Shown: one piece after another, positions 4,260 through 63,559 of the stretch
Position numbering within the stretch: the first letter of the stretch is position 1
How the letters are laid out: each line of letters begins with the position of its first letter
From: a virus
Strand: one strand, 5' to 3'
Virus record (IMG/VR): IMGVR_UViG_3300029822_000001
Location: 58,968 to 122,967 of that record
DNA length: 64,000 bases
Translations under genes and position numbers: made by a program
The notes under the pieces: generated by a model
Told to the model about the DNA's origin: nothing
Databases searched by the model: none
Seen by the model: the letters and a program-made list of their open reading frames with translations, nothing else

Positions 4260-4285
4260 TAAAAAAGGCTTAATTAAAGCCTTTT
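4260..4285 (-). terminator. intrinsic terminator
   Basis: AAAAGGCTT/AAGCCTTTT hairpin followed by T-run on minus strand. Confidence 0.6.
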
Positions 4286-4292
4286 ATATATA

Positions 4293-4874
4293 CTAGTCTA
4301 AATATTCAGTTTCTTGGTCTTCTGGACGTACCTCATCGCTACTATCCTCATCACTAATAAGGCCATCTTCTTTAGGTCCTTGGGATTCCAACTGCCTACG
4401 ATATGAGATGTCCGAACTAATTTGGTCAGTAACCTTTGCAATATTGGCATCAATGTCATTACTAACATGATTAGGGTACCCTGCTTGTTCAGCAGTCAAT
4501 ACAATATTATTGTACCTGTAGAAGTCCTTTGGTACATCAACAAATAGCTTACCAGTACCAATAAATTCACCAAACTCTAGCAAACTAATGGGACTCTTAG
4601 TGTCTCCCTGGATATGCATGAAAATGTAATCACAGCTGGCTAAACGTTCTTGTTCCCACTTAATCTGTTCCTCTTCCATATCTGGAGTAAAGTCTTCCGT
4701 TCTACGTGGATTGTAGAAGGCAATTGGCTGGTTAGTACGACGAGCAATTTGAGAAGCTACAGCATCTTGCCAAGGCTTAGCTTTTCCCATCTCAATAGAC
4801 CCTGCCAGGAAAATAGAAATCTCATCTGGATTAGGGAAAAGGTCACTTGGTGCTTGAATAACATGGTATATCAT
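4293..4874 (-). CDS. nucleoside 2-deoxyribosyltransferase-like protein
   Basis: IFLAGSI...WQ, YNPRR, QIKWE, SPISLLEFG motifs. Confidence 0.75.
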   Translation of the reverse strand: MIYHVIQAPSDLFPNPDEISIFLAGSIEMGKAKPWQDAVASQIARRTNQPIAFYNPRRTEDFTPDMEEEQIKWEQERLASCDYIFMHIQGDTKSPISLLEFGEFIGTGKLFVDVPKDFYRYNNIVLTAEQAGYPNHVSNDIDANIAKVTDQISSDISYRRQLESQGPKEDGLISDEDSSDEVRPEDQETEYLD

Positions 4875-4884
4875 GTATTATTAT

Positions 4885-5055
4885 CCTTTCTATGGCTTAA
4901 TCACGTGAACTACTCGGTCATGAAGGACCAAGCTTCTGGGAACACTGCTTACTTACACAGTAGTGTCTAGCACTCCATGCAGAGGTTACAGCTATTTACC
5001 ACGGCTCGTTCCGAACCTAGTTAGTCAATTATTTATTAGCTTGGTTTTCGCTAAC
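4885..5055 (-). ncRNA. predicted stand-alone TnpB omega-RNA; scaffold ends ...AGUUCAC, guide GUGAUUAAGCCAUAGAAAGG
   Basis: Homology to the two other right ends stops exactly at TTCAC; promoter directly upstream. Confidence 0.7.
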
Positions 5056-5151
5056 AACTATAGTATATCACATACTATTTATTTGTCAAGATTATACCTT
5101 ATCTCAATGCATCTCGTCACTAAAGTAACAAGCTTTCTCAATTGGCACTGA
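4905..5151 (-). mobile_element. non-autonomous IS200/IS605 mini-element: left-end hairpin, promoter and omega-RNA, no protein gene
   Basis: 4905-5028 aligns with the right ends at 38485 and 61686; hairpin CTCGTCACTAAAGTAACAAG at 5113-5132 nearly identical to that at 61694-61713. Confidence 0.85.
5062..5089 (-). promoter_or_regulatory. sigma-A promoter driving the orphan omega-RNA
   Basis: TTGACA-16nt-TATACT with TG extension. Confidence 0.7.
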
Positions 5152-5676: not shown

Positions 5677-6846
5677 TTACGCTACATAATTCTTAATATT
5701 TTCTACTGCGTTCTCATCTCGGTCTAAGATAGCCCCACAATTATAACAGTAATATTTTTGGTGATTGTGGTGAATACTATCTCCAGATAAGGTTTGCTTA
5801 CCTCCGTAACCATCTTTGGTCTTAAGATATCCACAAACACTACATATTTGAGTAGAAGGATATAGTCTGTCGACTAAGACCAGTTTACGATTATTCCATT
5901 CACACTTATAGGTTAAGATTTCCCTAAATTTACCAAATAGAGAACGGTGTAAATTCTTTCCCATTTTTTTACTCATCATCATTCCATGGACATTTAAGTC
6001 CTCAATATGAATTTCGGAATAGGTTGAGACAATCTGACAAGTAAATTGATTTAGAATATCCTTCTGTAAATTAGTAACTTTTTGGTAAACACGTCTAAGT
6101 TTGGTTTTCACTTTCATGTACCTTTTAGTTTTGAAATTACGAGGATTTTCTAATCGCTTTCGAGCCAACATTCGTTGGTAATGAGTAATTCTCTGATAGT
6201 ATCGTTCCAACTTTTTGGGGTAAATAGCTATTTGTTGACCATCATTATAATTAAAATGTCTAACATTAACATCTATCCCAACAATTTCACTGGTCTTAGG
6301 TACTATTTCGTTATGGGATGTATCAAACACTAAACTGGCATAGTAGCCGTCTGCCTTTTGAGTAATGGTACATAACTTCAATTTTCCCTCAAACCGAGGG
6401 GTTTCTCGCAGTTTAATCCCATACCAGACTGACTTACTAATCCCTTGAGGCTTGTCTAACGCTAACTTTCCACTGACAAGACGAGCTCTATCAGTAGAAA
6501 AGTTCGGTTTGTAGCTCTTTTTTGATTGAAACCTTGGTTTCCCCTGGTTAAGCATGTTTGGATTCCAAAAGCTCTTCCAAGCTTTCTCTAAACTACTTAC
6601 AGCTTGCTGAAGAACTCTAGGCGAGCGAGAATACTGCCAATCTTGCTTATTACTAACTAGTTCATTTCTAACTTTGCTGTTGTTGGGTCTTAAAGCTTTA
6701 TCACCTAAAATGCTTGATTCGTCATACATATCGTTCCAAGTAGCTAAGGCCTGATTCCAACAGTATCTTCGATAATTGAATAAGTCTTCAATTACCCTAG
6801 TCATATGAGCATTGGGCTCAATTTTAACTTGATGAGTTTTTATCAT
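5677..6846 (-). CDS. tnpB: RNA-guided endonuclease TnpB
   Basis: RuvC I GIDVN, II IEDL, III DRDENA; Zn finger CSVC...CYNC. Confidence 0.93.
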   Translation of the reverse strand: MIKTHQVKIEPNAHMTRVIEDLFNYRRYCWNQALATWNDMYDESSILGDKALRPNNSKVRNELVSNKQDWQYSRSPRVLQQAVSSLEKAWKSFWNPNMLNQGKPRFQSKKSYKPNFSTDRARLVSGKLALDKPQGISKSVWYGIKLRETPRFEGKLKLCTITQKADGYYASLVFDTSHNEIVPKTSEIVGIDVNVRHFNYNDGQQIAIYPKKLERYYQRITHYQRMLARKRLENPRNFKTKRYMKVKTKLRRVYQKVTNLQKDILNQFTCQIVSTYSEIHIEDLNVHGMMMSKKMGKNLHRSLFGKFREILTYKCEWNNRKLVLVDRLYPSTQICSVCGYLKTKDGYGGKQTLSGDSIHHNHQKYYCYNCGAILDRDENAVENIKNYVA

Positions 6847-13145: not shown

Positions 13146-13305
13146 CTGCTACAATAAACTTATAAAATATTACTAATATAAGTCTAATTTCCTGTTTCTT
13201 CCTGTCCCCGTTCTACTATTAGATTAGTAATAGCTACTTAGGTTTGTATGACAGTCCACAAGCGTAAATTCCTGTCTAGCCAACAGTACATATTTAAGCA
13301 GTAGT
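13146..13305 (-). ncRNA. probable omega-RNA scaffold of the 13306-14517 TnpB
   Basis: 160-nt non-coding structured region directly 3' of tnpB. Confidence 0.55.
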
Positions 13306-14517
13306 TTAATAGGCTAACTTAAATTTGGAAGTAATACAAATATTCTCACTAGCATTAATGTCTCTATCTAAAACAGACCCACAATTGGGACAAGCCCACT
13401 TTCTTACTTTAAGAAACTTTTGGCCCATATTCCTAAACTCTTCATTGTAGAATCCACATTGAGAACATGTCTTAGAGCTAGGATAAAATCTATCTACCAA
13501 GTGTACTGGTATTCCTAACCATTGACACTTATTAACTAGTCTAACCCGAAATCTGTAGAACTTCTGTTGCTGAACTTGCTTAGCTAAATGGTGATTTTTA
13601 AGCATTCCACTAACGTTTAAATCCTCTATTGCTATATATTGTGGCTTGGTTCTCACCACATCGGCAATAATTTTATCCTGATAATCGTTTAAGACATTAG
13701 CGATTCTTCCATTTAGCTTAAGAATTTTATCTTGTGTATCTGACAGGTTGAAATCAGTAGTAGCTCTCCTCTCATATTTGTTTTCTTTCAGTCTTTGTTT
13801 ATAGTCCTGATACTGACGGGACTCTTTTCTTTGTAATCTTCTTAACCTTTTCCTAAGCCTTTTTAATCTAGCAGACTTGTTAAGGTTCTTATAGACTGTA
13901 CCCTTATTTAATATGGCAAAGTCTTTAATACCCAAATCTACTCCAATAGCTTCTCCAGTAAGGTTAAGTTTACTAAAATCTGGTTGCTCTACTAGAGCAG
14001 TTAAATAGTATCTACCCGCTCTCTCTTTTATTCTACCAGAAATAATTCTAAAATCGTCACCTACTGGAATATACCCCTGCTCTTTATATCTAACAAACCC
14101 TATCTTAGGCAACTTTATTCGATATTTATCGTACCTAACAGGTTGAGACTTACTATTAGCACAAAAGTAATAAGAACCTTGATGCTTTCTAAGACTTCTA
14201 AATTTAGGTTTTCCTCTTATGTGCCTAAAGAATGCTTTCATGTTGGTATCAGCATCTATCATAGCTTGCTTAACATGTTTAGCATAATAATCCTTTATCC
14301 ATAAATCACTAGGATTATCCTTTAAGTATTGATTATTAAACCAAGTAGAAAAAGTGTAAGCACTCATATATGATTTGGAATCATGCGTTTCTCGGTAGTT
14401 TTTATTGTTTACTTCGAGAAACTTATTGTAAACCCAACGACTAACACCGATATAAGAATTAATCTGCCACTTTTGAGCCTTATTTAGTTTTAATTCAACT
14501 TTATAGGTTATTTGCAT
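13306..14517 (-). CDS. tnpB: RNA-guided endonuclease TnpB
   Basis: GVDLG, IEDL, CSQC...CPNC, DRDINAS. Confidence 0.93.
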   Translation of the reverse strand: MQITYKVELKLNKAQKWQINSYIGVSRWVYNKFLEVNNKNYRETHDSKSYMSAYTFSTWFNNQYLKDNPSDLWIKDYYAKHVKQAMIDADTNMKAFFRHIRGKPKFRSLRKHQGSYYFCANSKSQPVRYDKYRIKLPKIGFVRYKEQGYIPVGDDFRIISGRIKERAGRYYLTALVEQPDFSKLNLTGEAIGVDLGIKDFAILNKGTVYKNLNKSARLKRLRKRLRRLQRKESRQYQDYKQRLKENKYERRATTDFNLSDTQDKILKLNGRIANVLNDYQDKIIADVVRTKPQYIAIEDLNVSGMLKNHHLAKQVQQQKFYRFRVRLVNKCQWLGIPVHLVDRFYPSSKTCSQCGFYNEEFRNMGQKFLKVRKWACPNCGSVLDRDINASENICITSKFKLAY

Positions 14518-37690: not shown

Positions 37691-38392
37691 TTATAGTACT
37701 TCTAAGTCACCACCAGATACTTTTGTTAGAAACAAGGTTAAAGCATCATCAAAATCTAAGGCTTCTATTTTAACTGCAATATATAAACTTCCTCCGTCAA
37801 TATTAGCGTTAGTAATTGTAGCTTTCTTAACTCGATTATCTGTAGTAATTGTTCTTAGTACTTCCGTAGTTATCTCTTGTAATGAACTTTTATTTACATT
37901 TTTACCTAGGTAGTCATAAAGGTATGTTCCATAATCTGGGTGATTCAGATAAGTACCATGTCTCGTTAATAGACGCATCTCAATAGATTGCCTTAGGTTT
38001 TCTATACCAGATACTACAGCTAAATCCCTTTTACTAGCAGAGGGGGTTAAGAAAGATACTTCTTCATTCAAATTTCGTCCCTGTTGATAGGTCAATCTAA
38101 GGTCCATCCCTAGAGTAGTATCATAAATAGAATCTTTTTCGTATGAAGTTAAAGTATCCTCCTTGATGCTATCTAAACTGTCTGTACTGGTTGGAAGTTT
38201 AATACTGTCCCCTGGAGCTACTAGATGTAAAGGATTTTCCATTTTGTCCTTATTAGTATCAACGATATAAGGGTACTTCAAGTTATTCAAAGAAGCCAAG
38301 GAATACCAATCATCAGTACTACCTAACTTCTGAAATGCTATCATTTGAAGAGTATCCCCTAAACGTATTGTGTATTTATCATAATATGCCAA
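37691..38392 (-). CDS. baseplate wedge subunit (LysM + gp25-like)
   Basis: GDTLQ.IA...LG...W..LA.LN; GIENLRQSI..RLLT..G...HPDYG; DNRV. Confidence 0.85.
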   Translation of the reverse strand: MAYYDKYTIRLGDTLQMIAFQKLGSTDDWYSLASLNNLKYPYIVDTNKDKMENPLHLVAPGDSIKLPTSTDSLDSIKEDTLTSYEKDSIYDTTLGMDLRLTYQQGRNLNEEVSFLTPSASKRDLAVVSGIENLRQSIEMRLLTRHGTYLNHPDYGTYLYDYLGKNVNKSSLQEITTEVLRTITTDNRVKKATITNANIDGGSLYIAVKIEALDFDDALTLFLTKVSGGDLEVL

Positions 38393-38411
38393 AGTATCAC
38401 CTACTTTCTTC

Positions 38412-38480
38412 CCTAATATATAACGACTAACCCTTAGTGGTTAGTCGCTACTACTTAAATCACTCTGAACTTTAGCTTGA
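38412..38480 (-). repeat. diverged direct repeat of 39806-39875 (gene 3' end plus hairpin)
   Basis: 38442-38480 vs 39837-39875: 38 of 39 nt identical. Confidence 0.92.
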
Positions 38481-38608
38481 TTGAGTGAACTACTCGGCCA
38501 TGAATGACCGAGCTTCTAGGAACACTGCATACTTACACATTAGTGGCTAGCACTACGTGCAGAGGTTACAGCTATTTACTAGGGCTCGTTCCGAGCCTGA
38601 TTAGTCGG
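38465..38608 (-). ncRNA. predicted omega-RNA of intact IS605-type TnpB; guide UCAAUCAAGCUAAAGUUCAG
   Basis: Right end homologous to 4905 and 61686, ends TTCAC at 38485. Confidence 0.75.
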
Positions 38609-39745
38609 TTAAGCGCTTAAGATATTTTTTGCAGCATTAATGTCTCTATCATGATGTATACCACAATTAGGGCATGTCCACTGACGAACATCTAAAGTAT
38701 GTTTACCGTCGTCATAGCCACAGTTAGAACAAATCTGACTGGTTTTTCTAGGATTAACGGTGACTAACTGTTTCCCATACCAAGTGCATTTATATTCTAA
38801 CTGTCTTCTAATTTCTCGCCATGACTGATTAGCAATTGCTCGAGCAAGTTTATGATTCTTAAGAAGATTTTTGATTTTCAAATCTTCGATTTTAATCACG
38901 TCATATTTCTCGACTAACTGCTTGGTTAGGTTATGCAGGTAATTACTCCTTTGGTTAGCTACCTTTTCACTATATTTAGCTACCATATGTTTTGCTTTAA
39001 GGTAGTTATTGAAGTCAGATAGCTCTCGTGGCTCCATTACTTTATTGTGGTGGTCCCAAGCAATTTCTTTCATAGCTTGTAGTCTTCTACGAGCTAACCG
39101 TTTCTCCCAGTAATGCTTCTTTTTAGCAAGAAGTTTATCAAACCTAATAGTCGGATACTTAATACCATCACTAGTAATCATTAAATCAGCAACTCCCATA
39201 TCAATCCCTACGGATGTACCGGTACTTTCCAACCTATTGCATTCAGTATCAACCAAAACAATAGCATAGAACTTTCCAGTAGAAGACAACCTAATAGTTA
39301 CATTCTTAATTTTACCAGTAATCTGATGACCTGACCTAAAATAAACAGTTCCTAACTTAGGCAACTTAAGTCGATGTTCACCAACCTGACAAATATTTTT
39401 GTTGTAGGTTGATTGATAACTTTGTTTAGGAAACTTACGGGATTTAAACTTAGGGTACCCTGAGTGCTCCTTAAATAGCTTCTGGAAAGAACTATTTAAG
39501 TCTCTACTAACATGTTGTAAACTACTTGACTCTGCCATCTTAAGAAAAGGGTATTCCTGTTTTAAACACTTAATCAGGTAGTTCATACCAAACTCATTTA
39601 CGTACGAACCACCATTTTTATATCGTTCAATCTGCATGTTAAGCAATTGATTCCACACAAATCTACAGCATCCAAAAGTATTAACTATTTTGTACTGTTG
39701 CTCAACATTAGGATATATTCTAGTTTTGACAGCTTTTAACGTCAT
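38609..39745 (-). CDS. tnpB: RNA-guided endonuclease TnpB (IS200/IS605 type), intact
   Basis: K.RIYP, FGCCRFVWN, GIDMG, IEDL, CSNC...CPNC, DRDINAA; ATG 39745. Confidence 0.95.
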   Translation of the reverse strand: MTLKAVKTRIYPNVEQQYKIVNTFGCCRFVWNQLLNMQIERYKNGGSYVNEFGMNYLIKCLKQEYPFLKMAESSSLQHVSRDLNSSFQKLFKEHSGYPKFKSRKFPKQSYQSTYNKNICQVGEHRLKLPKLGTVYFRSGHQITGKIKNVTIRLSSTGKFYAIVLVDTECNRLESTGTSVGIDMGVADLMITSDGIKYPTIRFDKLLAKKKHYWEKRLARRRLQAMKEIAWDHHNKVMEPRELSDFNNYLKAKHMVAKYSEKVANQRSNYLHNLTKQLVEKYDVIKIEDLKIKNLLKNHKLARAIANQSWREIRRQLEYKCTWYGKQLVTVNPRKTSQICSNCGYDDGKHTLDVRQWTCPNCGIHHDRDINAAKNILSA

Positions 39746-39805
39746 TTTATTCACCACCTTATGATTTAATTATAGCATATTTTCAGAGTAAGGAGTGGAT
39801 TCACT

Positions 39806-39875
39806 CCTAATACAATAGCGACTAGTCGCTAAGGGCTAGTCGCTACTACTTAAATCACTCTGAATTTTAGCTTGA
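39806..39875 (-). repeat. second copy of the repeat, forming the current 3' end of gene 39836-40414
   Basis: See 38412-38480. Confidence 0.92.
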
Positions 39876-40414
39876 TTAAACAGAACAGTAACAAAGTTTT
39901 CAATAAAGCCTAAATCTATCTCTGCACGTCGTAAGTACCTTACAAGGTATCTGTACTCTTGAATTGAGCTACACCAATCAGCAACAAAGGATAAATTATC
40001 TCTTACTCGTTTAACATCATGGGATGATAAATATTCAAAGTAGGACATATCATTATTCATACAAAACATAATCGAAGTTATTTCTAAACAAACTCCTTGA
40101 AGTATTTTATACGTGGCTGGGTTATTGATTTTCATATTACTCTTCATTATTGCTGTAATCATTTTGTCAGATACATCTGTGTCATAATCAGGAAAACACT
40201 GATTAAGCTTACTTGTGTACAAAGTATAGGAACAATCTGATATAGCTAAGTTATACCCTTTTTCACTTCCATAGTCTCTGACTAGTTCATTAGTAGGAAT
40301 ATCTAAAGTACTACCATTGTACATAGGAGTTCCTTTAAGAAAGGTTAAATAACTTGCAGGGAGCATATAGTAGTCAGTATCTAAGTCGTCTGAAGCATCT
40401 ACTAAGTCATTCAT
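39836..40414 (-). CDS. putative baseplate-region structural protein
   Basis: ORF with AGGGGG RBS; synteny. Confidence 0.6.
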   Translation of the reverse strand: MNDLVDASDDLDTDYYMLPASYLTFLKGTPMYNGSTLDIPTNELVRDYGSEKGYNLAISDCSYTLYTSKLNQCFPDYDTDVSDKMITAIMKSNMKINNPATYKILQGVCLEITSIMFCMNNDMSYFEYLSSHDVKRVRDNLSFVADWCSSIQEYRYLVRYLRRAEIDLGFIENFVTVLFNQAKIQSDLSSSD

Positions 40415-61809: not shown

Positions 61810-63111
61810 TTACGCGTTTAAGATATTGATGGCTGCATTGATATCTCTATCGTGGTGCGTGCCACAATGTGGGCATGTCCACTGCCTAACATCTAAGGTA
61901 TGTTTGCCATCATCATAGCCACAATTAGAACAAATTTGACTAGTTTTTCTAGGATTAACAGTGACTAACTGTTTTCCATACCAAGCACACTTATATTCTA
62001 GTTGAGAATGCAGTTCTCACCAAGCTTGATTAGCAATTGCCCGAGCTAGCTTATGATTCTTAAGAAGATTTTTGGTTTTCAAATCCTCTATTTTAATCAC
62101 ATCATATTGCTCTACTAACTGTTTGGTTAGGATATGCAGGTAGTTACTTCTTTGGTTAGCTACCTTTTCACTGCATTTAGCTACCATATGCTTAGCTTTA
62201 AGGCAATTCTTGAAGTCTGATAGTTCTCTTGGTTCCATTACTTTGTTGTGATGGTCCCAAGCAATCTCTTTAAGTGCTTGTAGTCTTCTACGAGCTAACC
62301 GCTTCTCCCAGTAATGCTTTTTATTAGCTAAAATCTTATCAAACCTAACAGTTGGATACTTAACTCCGTCGCTGGTAATCATTAAATCAGCAACACCCAT
62401 ATCAATGCCAACCTCATCAGCTGTTTTTGGGAGTCTGTTAACTTTAGTATCAACTAAAACAACTGCATAGAACTTACCAGTAGAAGATAACCGAATAGTT
62501 ACATTCTTAATTTTACCAGTAATCTGACGACCTGACTTAAAGTAAACAGCTCCTAACTTAGGCAACTTAAGTCGATGTTCATCAACCTGACAGATATTTT
62601 TGTTGTAACTTACTTGATAACTTTGTTTAGGAAACTTACGCGATTTATACTTTGGATGCCCAGAGTGCTCTTTAAACAGTTTCTGGAAAGCGTTATTTAA
62701 GTTTCTACTAACATGTTGTAAACTAGTTGATTCTGCTTTCTTAAGAAATGGGTACTCTTTCTTCAACTGTACAATCAGGTAGTCCATACCAAACTCACTA
62801 ACAAACTTACCACCATTGTGGTATCTTTCAATCTGCATGTTAAGTAACTGATTCCACACAAATCGGCAACATCCAAAAGTATTAACTATTTTGTACTATT
62901 GTTCAACAGTAGGATATATTCTAGTTTTGATAGCTCTTAATGTCATTTTATTCACCTTCTTTTAAGTTTATTATACTATCTTTTACAACCTAATGCAATT
63001 CATCACGTCCTTAAAAGAACGCGTCTTCTTGCATTAACTAATAAATAAAGGGCCCAATAGTGTCCTATCCATTTCATGACTAAAGTCGCGGGATTTCCGG
63101 CTAATATTATT
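61686..63111 (-). mobile_element. IS200/IS605-type tnpB-only element inserted 3' of TTTAA
   Basis: Left-end hairpin GACTTTAGTC; right end TTCAC; removal restores AGT TTA AAG TAA. Confidence 0.8.
61810..62946 (-). pseudogene. tnpB: tnpB pseudogene with two nonsense codons, frame otherwise intact
   Basis: Same length (1137 nt) as 38609-39745; CAG>TAG at 62896-62898, CGA>TGA at 62017-62019. Confidence 0.9.
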
Positions 63112-63559
63112 TTAAACTAACACTTGCTGAAGTACCTGTTGTATCTATATTGCTTAAAGTGGGAGCTGATTTGACAGACTCACTTGCACTAATAGATGCT
63201 ACTGTAGCGTACAAAGCAGTCAATTGTTGAGATATCTGAGTTAGTGCCATAGTCGCTTGGCTATAACCCATCAACCCCTTAGATGCTACTAAAGCTACTT
63301 CAGTGATACTATCAGTAACCTTACCCATGTTGTTAGATAATGAAGATACTGACTTTGCTACATCATCAATATTGTTTTCTGGAAGATTCCCTGGATTAAG
63401 AATGTGTCCTGAGTTTACATCGTATCTAAATTTAGAAGTATACTTTAACATCTGCTTAGACCAATCAGCATTTGCGTACACCTTTGTGTACCCTTCCTTT
63501 TCTGTGACGGATAAATCAGTTAAATATCCGTCTGAATCATACGTTATATAAATGTACAT
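63107..63559 (-). CDS. putative fibre-associated protein (XkdW-like position)
   Basis: AAGGAGG RBS; lies between repeat protein and XkdX-like gene. Confidence 0.5.
   Translation of the reverse strand: MYIYITYDSDGYLTDLSVTEKEGYTKVYANADWSKQMLKYTSKFRYDVNSGHILNPGNLPENNIDDVAKSVSSLSNNMGKVTDSITEVALVASKGLMGYSQATMALTQISQQLTALYATVASISASESVKSAPTLSNIDTTGTSASVSLK

Follow-up and report, generated by a model that had tools for sequence, protein, structure and literature searches.

Why does an intact tnpB gene in a phage genome lie between two versions of the end of a neighbouring gene? The locus that raises this question sits on the minus strand of a 64,000-nucleotide window, bases 58968-122967 of the 122,967-bp IMG/VR phage record IMGVR_UViG_3300029822_000001 (estimated completeness 87%); positions below are those of this window unless marked as genome positions. 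The window and Lactobacillus (Levilactobacillus) brevis phage 3-521 (Herelleviridae, Watanabevirus) are colinear, mostly at ~80-95% identity. In minus-strand order the locus comprises a baseplate-module gene of 192 amino acids (aa), a hairpin, a TATAAT box with a ribosome-binding site, tnpB, an RNA scaffold, TCAATCAAGCTAAAGTTCAG, a second hairpin and a gp25-like gene. Since tnpB lies between two versions of the last 79 bases of the 192-aa gene, that gene stays whole. We propose, with somewhat more confidence than doubt, that the locus is a TnpA-independent IS605-type tnpB/omega-RNA cassette of the form 'spare gene end - nuclease gene - displaced native gene end', with the history and function set out below. 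It holds a replacement gene end, a nuclease gene and a displaced native end, and relatives carry the uninterrupted allele; from its letters, it looks like a natural cut-the-rival-and-carry-a-spare element.

A tnpB gene between two versions of a gene end

The direct repeat that flanks tnpB is ~79 nucleotides (nt) long, with the upstream copy (U) at 39801-39879 and the downstream copy (D) at 38406-38484, as delimited by alignment with relatives. Self-BLAST pairs 38412-38482 with 39806-39877 (72 nt, 84.7%, E 7e-16). The similarity is far beyond chance: at <=3 mismatches the 20-nt guide predicted from D has U and D as its only 2 sites in the window, and none of 100 shuffles yielded 2 matches. The original prediction had described tnpB as flanked by a duplicate of its own target; the repeat is real, but it begins 4 nt further upstream than had been assumed. 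The letters quoted on either side are all present and are those of the minus strand, where the 192-aa gene ends ...CTGTTTAA TCAAGCTAAAATTCAGAGTG... and the right end runs ...GAGTAGTTCAC TCAA TCAAGCTAAAGTTCAGAGTG....

U carries the last 14 codons and the stop of the 192-aa gene (39836-40414, minus strand), a terminator-like hairpin and a spacer, and thus keeps both the gene and its terminator whole. The hairpin (39813-39848, minus strand; -17.6 kcal/mol, z -3.5; terminator-like match at 39831-39816) is a native-terminator variant whose altered 3' arm makes AGCGACTAGTCGCT a perfect palindrome. D, the displaced native gene end on the same strand, starts TCAATCAAGC directly behind TTCAC and has its own hairpin at 38420-38451 (-19.1 kcal/mol, z -6.0). 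The 10-nt interior of this second hairpin equals the native 10-mer reverse-complemented (CCCTTAGTGG to CCACTAAGGG), without a single difference. Both hairpins fold, and the inverted interior noticed earlier is verified. The inversion, at 38429-38438 (minus strand), takes in the loop and the closing pairs; a contig of run X2 is a variant with small indels at the D hairpin.

The gene between the two copies is intact. tnpB (38609-39745, minus strand) encodes 378 aa from the ATG at 39745, or 382 aa from an upstream GTG. Its product passes the Pfam cut-offs for HTH_OrfB_IS605, OrfB_IS605 and Cas12f1-like_TNB (PF12323, PF01385, PF07282) and aligns with ISDra2-type structures (PDB 8H1J, 8BF8) at E 3e-62 over 372 residues. 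The GIDMG, IEDL and HDRD motifs, which hold the RuvC D-E-D residues, and the CxxC...CxxC zinc ribbon align with the ISDra2-type chains. With the Pfam domains, the RuvC acidic residues and both CxxC pairs all in place, the claim of an intact tnpB stands; a RuvC triad and a C-terminal zinc ribbon in a protein of ~400 aa are the marks of an IS200/IS605 TnpB. A promoter-like TATAAT (39769-39774) and a ribosome-binding site (39751-39760) precede the gene on its strand.

Behind tnpB, the conserved omega-RNA scaffold and right end (38485-38606, minus strand; final base at 38485) are common to the 7 other scaffolds of the genome. The scaffold folds at -44 kcal/mol (z -3.1), includes the right-end hairpin at 38493-38512 and matched no Rfam family. 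The boundary at TTCAC, as originally placed, is borne out by the flanks, which diverge directly after it in the 8 genome scaffolds and in the compared pairs of bacterial copies. A scaffold at the 3' end of tnpB, a boundary at the right end and a guide that would be read from the flank are the arrangement of IS200/IS605 TnpB.

The original prediction had named an assembly artefact as something that would overturn it. Both the D/right-end and the U/element junctions are bridged by contigs from the runs of four studies (the likely source and 3 others), with 0-2 differing letters and no gaps, and hence the duplication is no artefact of assembly. The runs are of fermentation metagenomes with dates from 2014 to 2025. 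Identical cassette junctions thus occur in four studies, the pieces outside the likely source run being only 138-455 nt long.

Uninterrupted alleles, the guide and its target motif

The empty site is present in phage 3-521 and in the metagenome contig L039, and a contig of run X9 that skips the 1420 nt between the two repeat copies likewise represents an uninterrupted allele. In a further contig, L040, the same gene end is struck by a different tnpB of 387 aa. All three other alleles (3-521, L039 and L040) read TTCAATCAAGC, in the context ...TTGTTCAATCAAGC..., and D therefore runs in register with native sequence from base 1 on. The 'extra TCAA' at the start of D, earlier taken for a 4-nt duplication, is part of a native Phe-Asn codon pair (TTC AAT); there is no demonstrable duplication, and with TCAA native in every other allele seen the slip said to have disarmed a self-targeting guide is not supported. 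The TTTAA in U is a derived synonymous change (TTC to TTT) found in no other allele. Its proposed role as the relevant target-adjacent motif (TAM) had been inferred from a copy whose left end is of another type (copy B, below), and is not supported.

The predicted 20-nt guide, read from the base after TTCAC, consists of the first bases of D (38465-38484, minus strand). It matches the 3-521 allele at 20/20 positions, L039 at 19/20 and U at 18/20, with mismatches to U at positions 2 and 15, and has no further match elsewhere in the genome. The 5-mer ahead of the guide-like stretch is TCTGT in U, TTTGT in 3-521 and CTTGT in L039 and L040. These differences bear on a suggestion of the original prediction, that TnpB with its RNA binds its own upstream region and controls tnpB transcription. 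In its favour, U does lie ~30-110 nt upstream of the promoter-like TATAAT of tnpB. Yet the mismatch at position 2 falls in the seed, the 5-mer ahead of U is a different one, and were TTTAA the TAM, pairing of the guide would be limited to 4 nt. The nuclease residues are also intact, unlike those of domesticated TnpB-derived regulators in the portions of the source drawn upon (PMC10705468). Nothing suggests binding at U, and we regard autoregulation as very improbable.

Motifs for the family come from other insertions. Compared with phage 3-521, copy B (61.7-63 kb) is cleanly inserted, with TTTAA at its left and TTCAC at its right boundary; it is a pseudogene with 2 stops, and its left end is of another type, with ~85 nt of extra sequence. 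At 62995-63113 (minus strand) this extra stretch separates the TTTAA junction from an inner TTTAT and the left-end hairpin; it includes a degenerate second hairpin, perhaps as part of a nested or composite left end. Where the left end is like the remnant at the present locus, the element is preceded by TTTAT (L026/L028 and the bacterial copies L055, L056, L060 and L086) or by TTGAT (L036 and a protein-less omega-RNA near genome position 13.6 kb). Other candidate sources were rejected: the omega-RNA copies G4691, G5338 and G13653, aligned to 3-521, have substituted flanks and no clean empty site, and the junction of copy C is ambiguous by 2-5 nt.

The naive alleles thus hold two candidate insertion sites, TTTGT or CTTGT in the register of the guide and TTCAA four bases on. 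The second underlies the original account, in which a canonical insertion after TT(C/T)AA was rescued by recombination, left a self-target (TTTAA plus a 19/20 match) and was then disarmed by a 4-nt slip, TCAA to TCAATCAA. TTCAA and TTTAA share an A at position 4 with most of the inferred family motifs, among them the TTTAA of copy B. The in-register guide left after rescue would have its sole mismatch at position 11, so that escape would be selected, and the right-end TCAC beside TCAA forms a near-repeat that could favour slippage. This account, however, needs one more event, and that event must exactly recreate the native TTCAATCAAGC of three alleles; its TTTAA exists in U only. In three other repeat-flanked relatives, moreover, the downstream copy stands in register directly after the right end, behind 5-mers ending T-A-T. 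The pairing rule of IS608 points the same way: TTGT suits left-end guide bases AAAA better than TCAA does, and TCAA fits AAAA or AAAG worse than TTGT. On the strength of this rule and of the in-register D in the three relatives, insertion before TCAATC is favoured over 'TTCAA plus slip', by a clear though not overwhelming preference; the slip account as a whole we consider unlikely.

Origin of the repeat and its recurrence

Of the left end only a remnant, ATCCACTCCTTACTCTG..., is left at 39758-39800 (minus strand), recognised by motif scans and by eye comparison with the left ends of L031, L026, L023, L036 and copy C. In relatives the left end runs ...GAGAAAG-hairpin-GAGATGAATCC-...TACTCTGAAAGTATGATATAAT, whereas here U runs into ...GGAGTGAATCCACTCCTTACTCTGAAAATATGCTATAAT. 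The part from ...GAATCC... onward remains, and the left-end hairpin and all ahead of it are gone. Motif scans of 39758-39880 found no TnpA-binding left-end hairpin of either type, in agreement with the earlier statement that it is missing. The Y1 transposase gene tnpA (PF01797) is absent from the 122,967-bp record in a profile search. The locus therefore lacks both the hairpin and the tnpA that an autonomous or TnpA-mobilisable IS605 element would have, and in place of an insertion without target duplication it shows a 79-nt direct repeat.

How the gene end came to stand ahead of tnpB is suggested by the spacers of the uninterrupted alleles. The native spacers (...TATTAAGAGTGAGAG in L039, ...TATTAGGTGAGAAG in the X9 contig) resemble the junction and also the left-end tips found in relatives (...ATAGGAGAGTGGAGAAAG in L031), and such resemblance is what a short-homology crossover needs. 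L040 shows, to judge by its letters, the same kind of event, since native GATTTAAG is joined there within the loop of the left-end hairpin through a common TTTAAG. At its other side (L040:1-1701) the right end reads ...GGTTCAA and then TAGCGAC, with ~4 native bases lost and no duplication, and the gene ends ...SDLRT*.

The two copies have different affinities. U and D agree at 66/80 positions, U and L039 at 72/79, and D and 3-521 at 75/81, the first 42 nt of D being identical to 3-521. Upstream of U, the identity of the gene is 93.5% to L039 and 90.7% to 3-521. U and D thus look like different alleles united by phage-phage recombination rather than the products of a recent duplication in place. 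The part of the original prediction in which recombination with a relative restored the 3' end of the gene and removed the left end is upheld by these affinities, U being nearer L039 and D nearer 3-521.

Other constructions of the junctions were tried and dropped. A canonical TAM and left-end junction followed by internal deletion of the hairpin lacks a good TAM, and the native spacers already resemble the junction. Two insertions 79 nt apart, joined by recombination within the element, fail for the same resemblance and for want of a good TAM at either site. Microhomology joining at GTTCA (right end with native GTTCAA) would give …GTTCAATCAAGC, which differs from the observed sequence. TnpB cuts at 15-21 nt, and a duplication limited by the cut site, though it could suit repeats of 16 nt and 27 nt in relatives, would not account for one of 79 nt as found here.

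The layout recurs. In 22 distinct phage-borne elements, 18 from IMG/VR and GenBank and 4 in this genome, the first bases after the right end were compared with the region ahead of tnpB. L018/19, L023/24, L026/27 and L036/37 were each counted once; L002, whose right end escaped the pattern, was unscored, and L038 is truncated. Repeats beginning at guide base 1-3 flank 4 of the 22, as against none of 35 bacterial copies. The four are the tnpB studied here, L036/37 (26/26 nt, the sole difference between the copies being at guide position 1), phage ATCCB (15/16 nt) and L034 (101/131 aligned columns, covering the 3' end of a gene with a LysM-like-looking translation). The pairs in relatives lie at L034:2837-2966 and 4269-4396, L036:2886-2911 and 4270-4295, and L003:1388-1403 and 2738-2753. 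In all four elements the upstream copy completes or precedes a host gene and differs from the guide at one or more of positions 1-12. A 10-nt match in L029 (E 0.05) was not counted.

The bacterial control drew on 59 identifiers (L041-L099), of which 35 loci were scored; loci were excluded if shorter than 4500 nt, if they had no open reading frame (ORF) of >=330 codons or if no right end was found by the pattern. It gave 5 repeat hits in 4 of the 35 loci, none beginning before flank base 19. Of the three loci inspected, the repeats of L055 and L060 look like paralogous coding repeats, and that of L063 (57 nt) adjoins the left end but lies 52 nt from the right end.

We propose that the element first inserted by single-strand transposition before TCAATCAAGC, after TTTGT, in a 3-521-like allele, an insertion that would have severed the last 14 codons of the 192-aa gene. 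A short-homology crossover would then have joined an uninterrupted, L039-like co-infecting genome to the left-end tip of the element, placing a complete gene end ahead of tnpB while the element lost its left end. TnpB would still be produced from its own promoter, and RNA read across TTCAC would bear the displaced gene end as its guide. Such a guide would spare the resident U by its seed mismatch and would fit the uninterrupted alleles of related phages, so that the cassette could cut rivals in a mixed infection and be copied into them. TnpB would also serve the protein-less omega-RNA genes of the same genome.

Several findings weigh against this reading. The TTTGT and CTTGT of the naive alleles differ from the TTTAT, TTGAT and TTTAA found at cleaner insertions of the family, which makes both an ordinary insertion there and present-day cutting uncertain. 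The resemblance of spacers and left-end tips means that the U/element junction can be placed only within about 39800-39806 and not to the base. U is assigned to an allele on few sites (72/79 as against 70/79, a single diagnostic base within the guide stretch, and the spacer). Finally, the contrast between phage-borne and bacterial copies is modest (one-sided hypergeometric ~0.02).

The first of these points would also suit an inert scar or artefact, that is, a target duplication in place or an assembly error with tnpB idle at the locus, and the pseudogene state of copy B, with its 2 stops, demonstrates that decay does occur in this genome. Such a scar is hard to reconcile with junctions bridged in four studies, with a tnpB that is intact and has its promoter-like TATAAT and ribosome-binding site, or with the 42 nt that D shares exactly with 3-521. 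U and D are each nearer foreign alleles than each other, which argues against a recent duplication in place. We therefore give this explanation little credence.

A different possibility is that the cassette arrived whole by homing, U coming from the donor phage and D being the recipient's own. A co-converted left flank would give the observed pattern, with U and its upstream gene nearer L039 and D nearer 3-521; identical junctions are found across four studies; and mobile ORFs of fungal mitochondria have an inserted C-terminus, an endonuclease and a native C-terminus in this order, according to the sections of PMC3630166 used here. A second phage background was, however, not recovered. IMG/VR yielded neither a relative of the 192-aa gene nor an exact copy of the right-end/D junction, a metagenome scan for a second long genome with the cassette gave only L039 (empty site) and L040 (other tnpB), and the contigs of the runs are short. 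Arrival by homing seems rather improbable here, and since it still requires a founding event it would supplement the two-step history proposed above rather than compete with it.

In a stronger form of the proposal, the cassette would be a natural, functioning gene drive in virulent Lactobacillus phages, RNA-guided and of the 'home-and-rescue' type; this we put forward tentatively, as a possibility with the odds against it. If it is true, TnpB cuts the uninterrupted allele of co-infecting relatives, for instance phage 3-521, and repair brings in the nuclease gene along with a spare gene end that resists the guide. The guide would renew itself in each recipient because it is templated by the native end behind the right end. 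With another 6 genes of the tnpB family and the 4 guide genes that lack a protein, the phage would amount to a multi-guide allele-exclusion system.

Guide genes elsewhere in the genome and relation to known systems

The genes on either side of the cassette belong to the structural region. The gp25-like gene, encoding a baseplate wedge or sheath initiator by Pfam, lies undisturbed at 37691-38392 (minus strand). The 192-aa gene is a homologue of UCC3521_0073 of phage 3-521, annotated there as 'membrane protein', and its product has no Pfam match.

The genome has 7 tnpB-family ORFs in total, one of them carrying stops. The scaffolds of the omega-RNA family of the present TnpB number 8, of which 4 stand behind tnpB genes and 4 are protein-less with promoter-like sequences of their own. 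The protein-less genes lie at window 4905-5151 (minus strand) and at genome 13653-13766, 19746-19854 and 5338-5445 (plus strand), and one directly adjoins base 1 of a tRNA-Gly gene. The two scaffolds most similar to that of the present tnpB (91% and 89%) are both protein-less, which makes this TnpB their likeliest protein partner, in line with the original prediction; that they use the protein is plausible from this likeness. Three more ORFs of the tnpB family, with ~27% identity and no internal stops, are found at window 5677-6846 and 13306-14517 (both minus strand) and at genome 8201-9343 (plus strand). An Rfam match to RAGATH-18 (52.5 bits, window 13189-13262, minus strand) directly 3' of the ORF at 13306-14517 is probably part of the guide-RNA scaffold of that ORF.

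Outside the window, at genome 11234-11480, a ~36-bp tandem duplication behind another intact tnpB re-creates the start of a mazF/pemK-like gene along with its ribosome-binding site. Phage 3-521 has the native promoter and initial codons, which are lost here; the element has no left end, and its guide matches 16 nt within the mazF/pemK-like gene.

A known role of TnpB is to help retain transposons at their sites when they have been excised. The element proposed here would go beyond the known roles of TnpB, since it is without a transposase, interrupts a gene of a phage structural module, carries a resistant spare and would be guided by the displaced end. If the proposal is true, RNA-guided nucleases assume, where phages compete with one another, the ecological part of homing endonucleases, and the locus is an RNA-guided counterpart both of the gene hybrids of fungal mobile ORFs and of engineered home-and-rescue drives. 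It lends itself to direct testing because the isolated phage 3-521 has an empty, perfectly matching site, because the resident copy differs at two guide positions only and because a second, unrelated tnpB (L040) has struck the same gene end. A full-text literature search on phage TnpB and homing found no description of a spare gene end beside TnpB.

The locus shares with IS200/IS605 TnpB of the ISDra2 type the homology of the protein, a scaffold that overlaps the 3' end of the gene, the right-end hairpin and a guide templated by the flank. It differs in having no tnpA in the genome and no left-end hairpin, and in its 79-nt target repeat, where the family makes no target duplications as far as the relevant passages of a review go (PMC13565253). 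The host, too, is different: a phage of virulent type with 7 tnpB-family and 4 protein-less omega-RNA genes.

Mechanistically, a precedent for spread is 'non-restorative homing', in which IS605-type elements spread between plasmid copies by TnpB, independently of TnpA (PMC11870625; PMC13565253). The review raises such spread as a possibility for co-infecting phages (PMC13565253). In both cases TnpB would cut an empty homologous site and the element be copied by recombination without a transposase. The elements described in the parts of these two sources drawn upon differ in that both ends are kept and the TAM is canonical, and those parts describe no spare of an interrupted gene. The Seg and Mob homing endonucleases of T-even phages, in the corresponding section of the review (PMC13565253), likewise place a nuclease between conserved genes, leave the resident unharmed through target differences and spread in mixed infections. 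They recognise their targets by protein, whereas recognition here would be by a 20-nt RNA guide and a short motif.

In layout, the locus matches the mobile endonuclease ORFs of fungal mitochondria, which form gene hybrids in atp6 of Allomyces and in atp6, atp9, cox2 and nad3 of Glomus; in these hybrids the native C-terminal copy is nearer relatives than the inserted copy, as reported in the passages of PMC3630166 on which we draw. The order U-tnpB-D and its pattern of identities match the inserted end, endonuclease and native end of that account. The nuclease of the fungal ORFs is a protein-guided LAGLIDADG or GIY-YIG enzyme, whereas here the displaced native end would itself template the RNA guide, and the target would thus be set by the position of the cassette.

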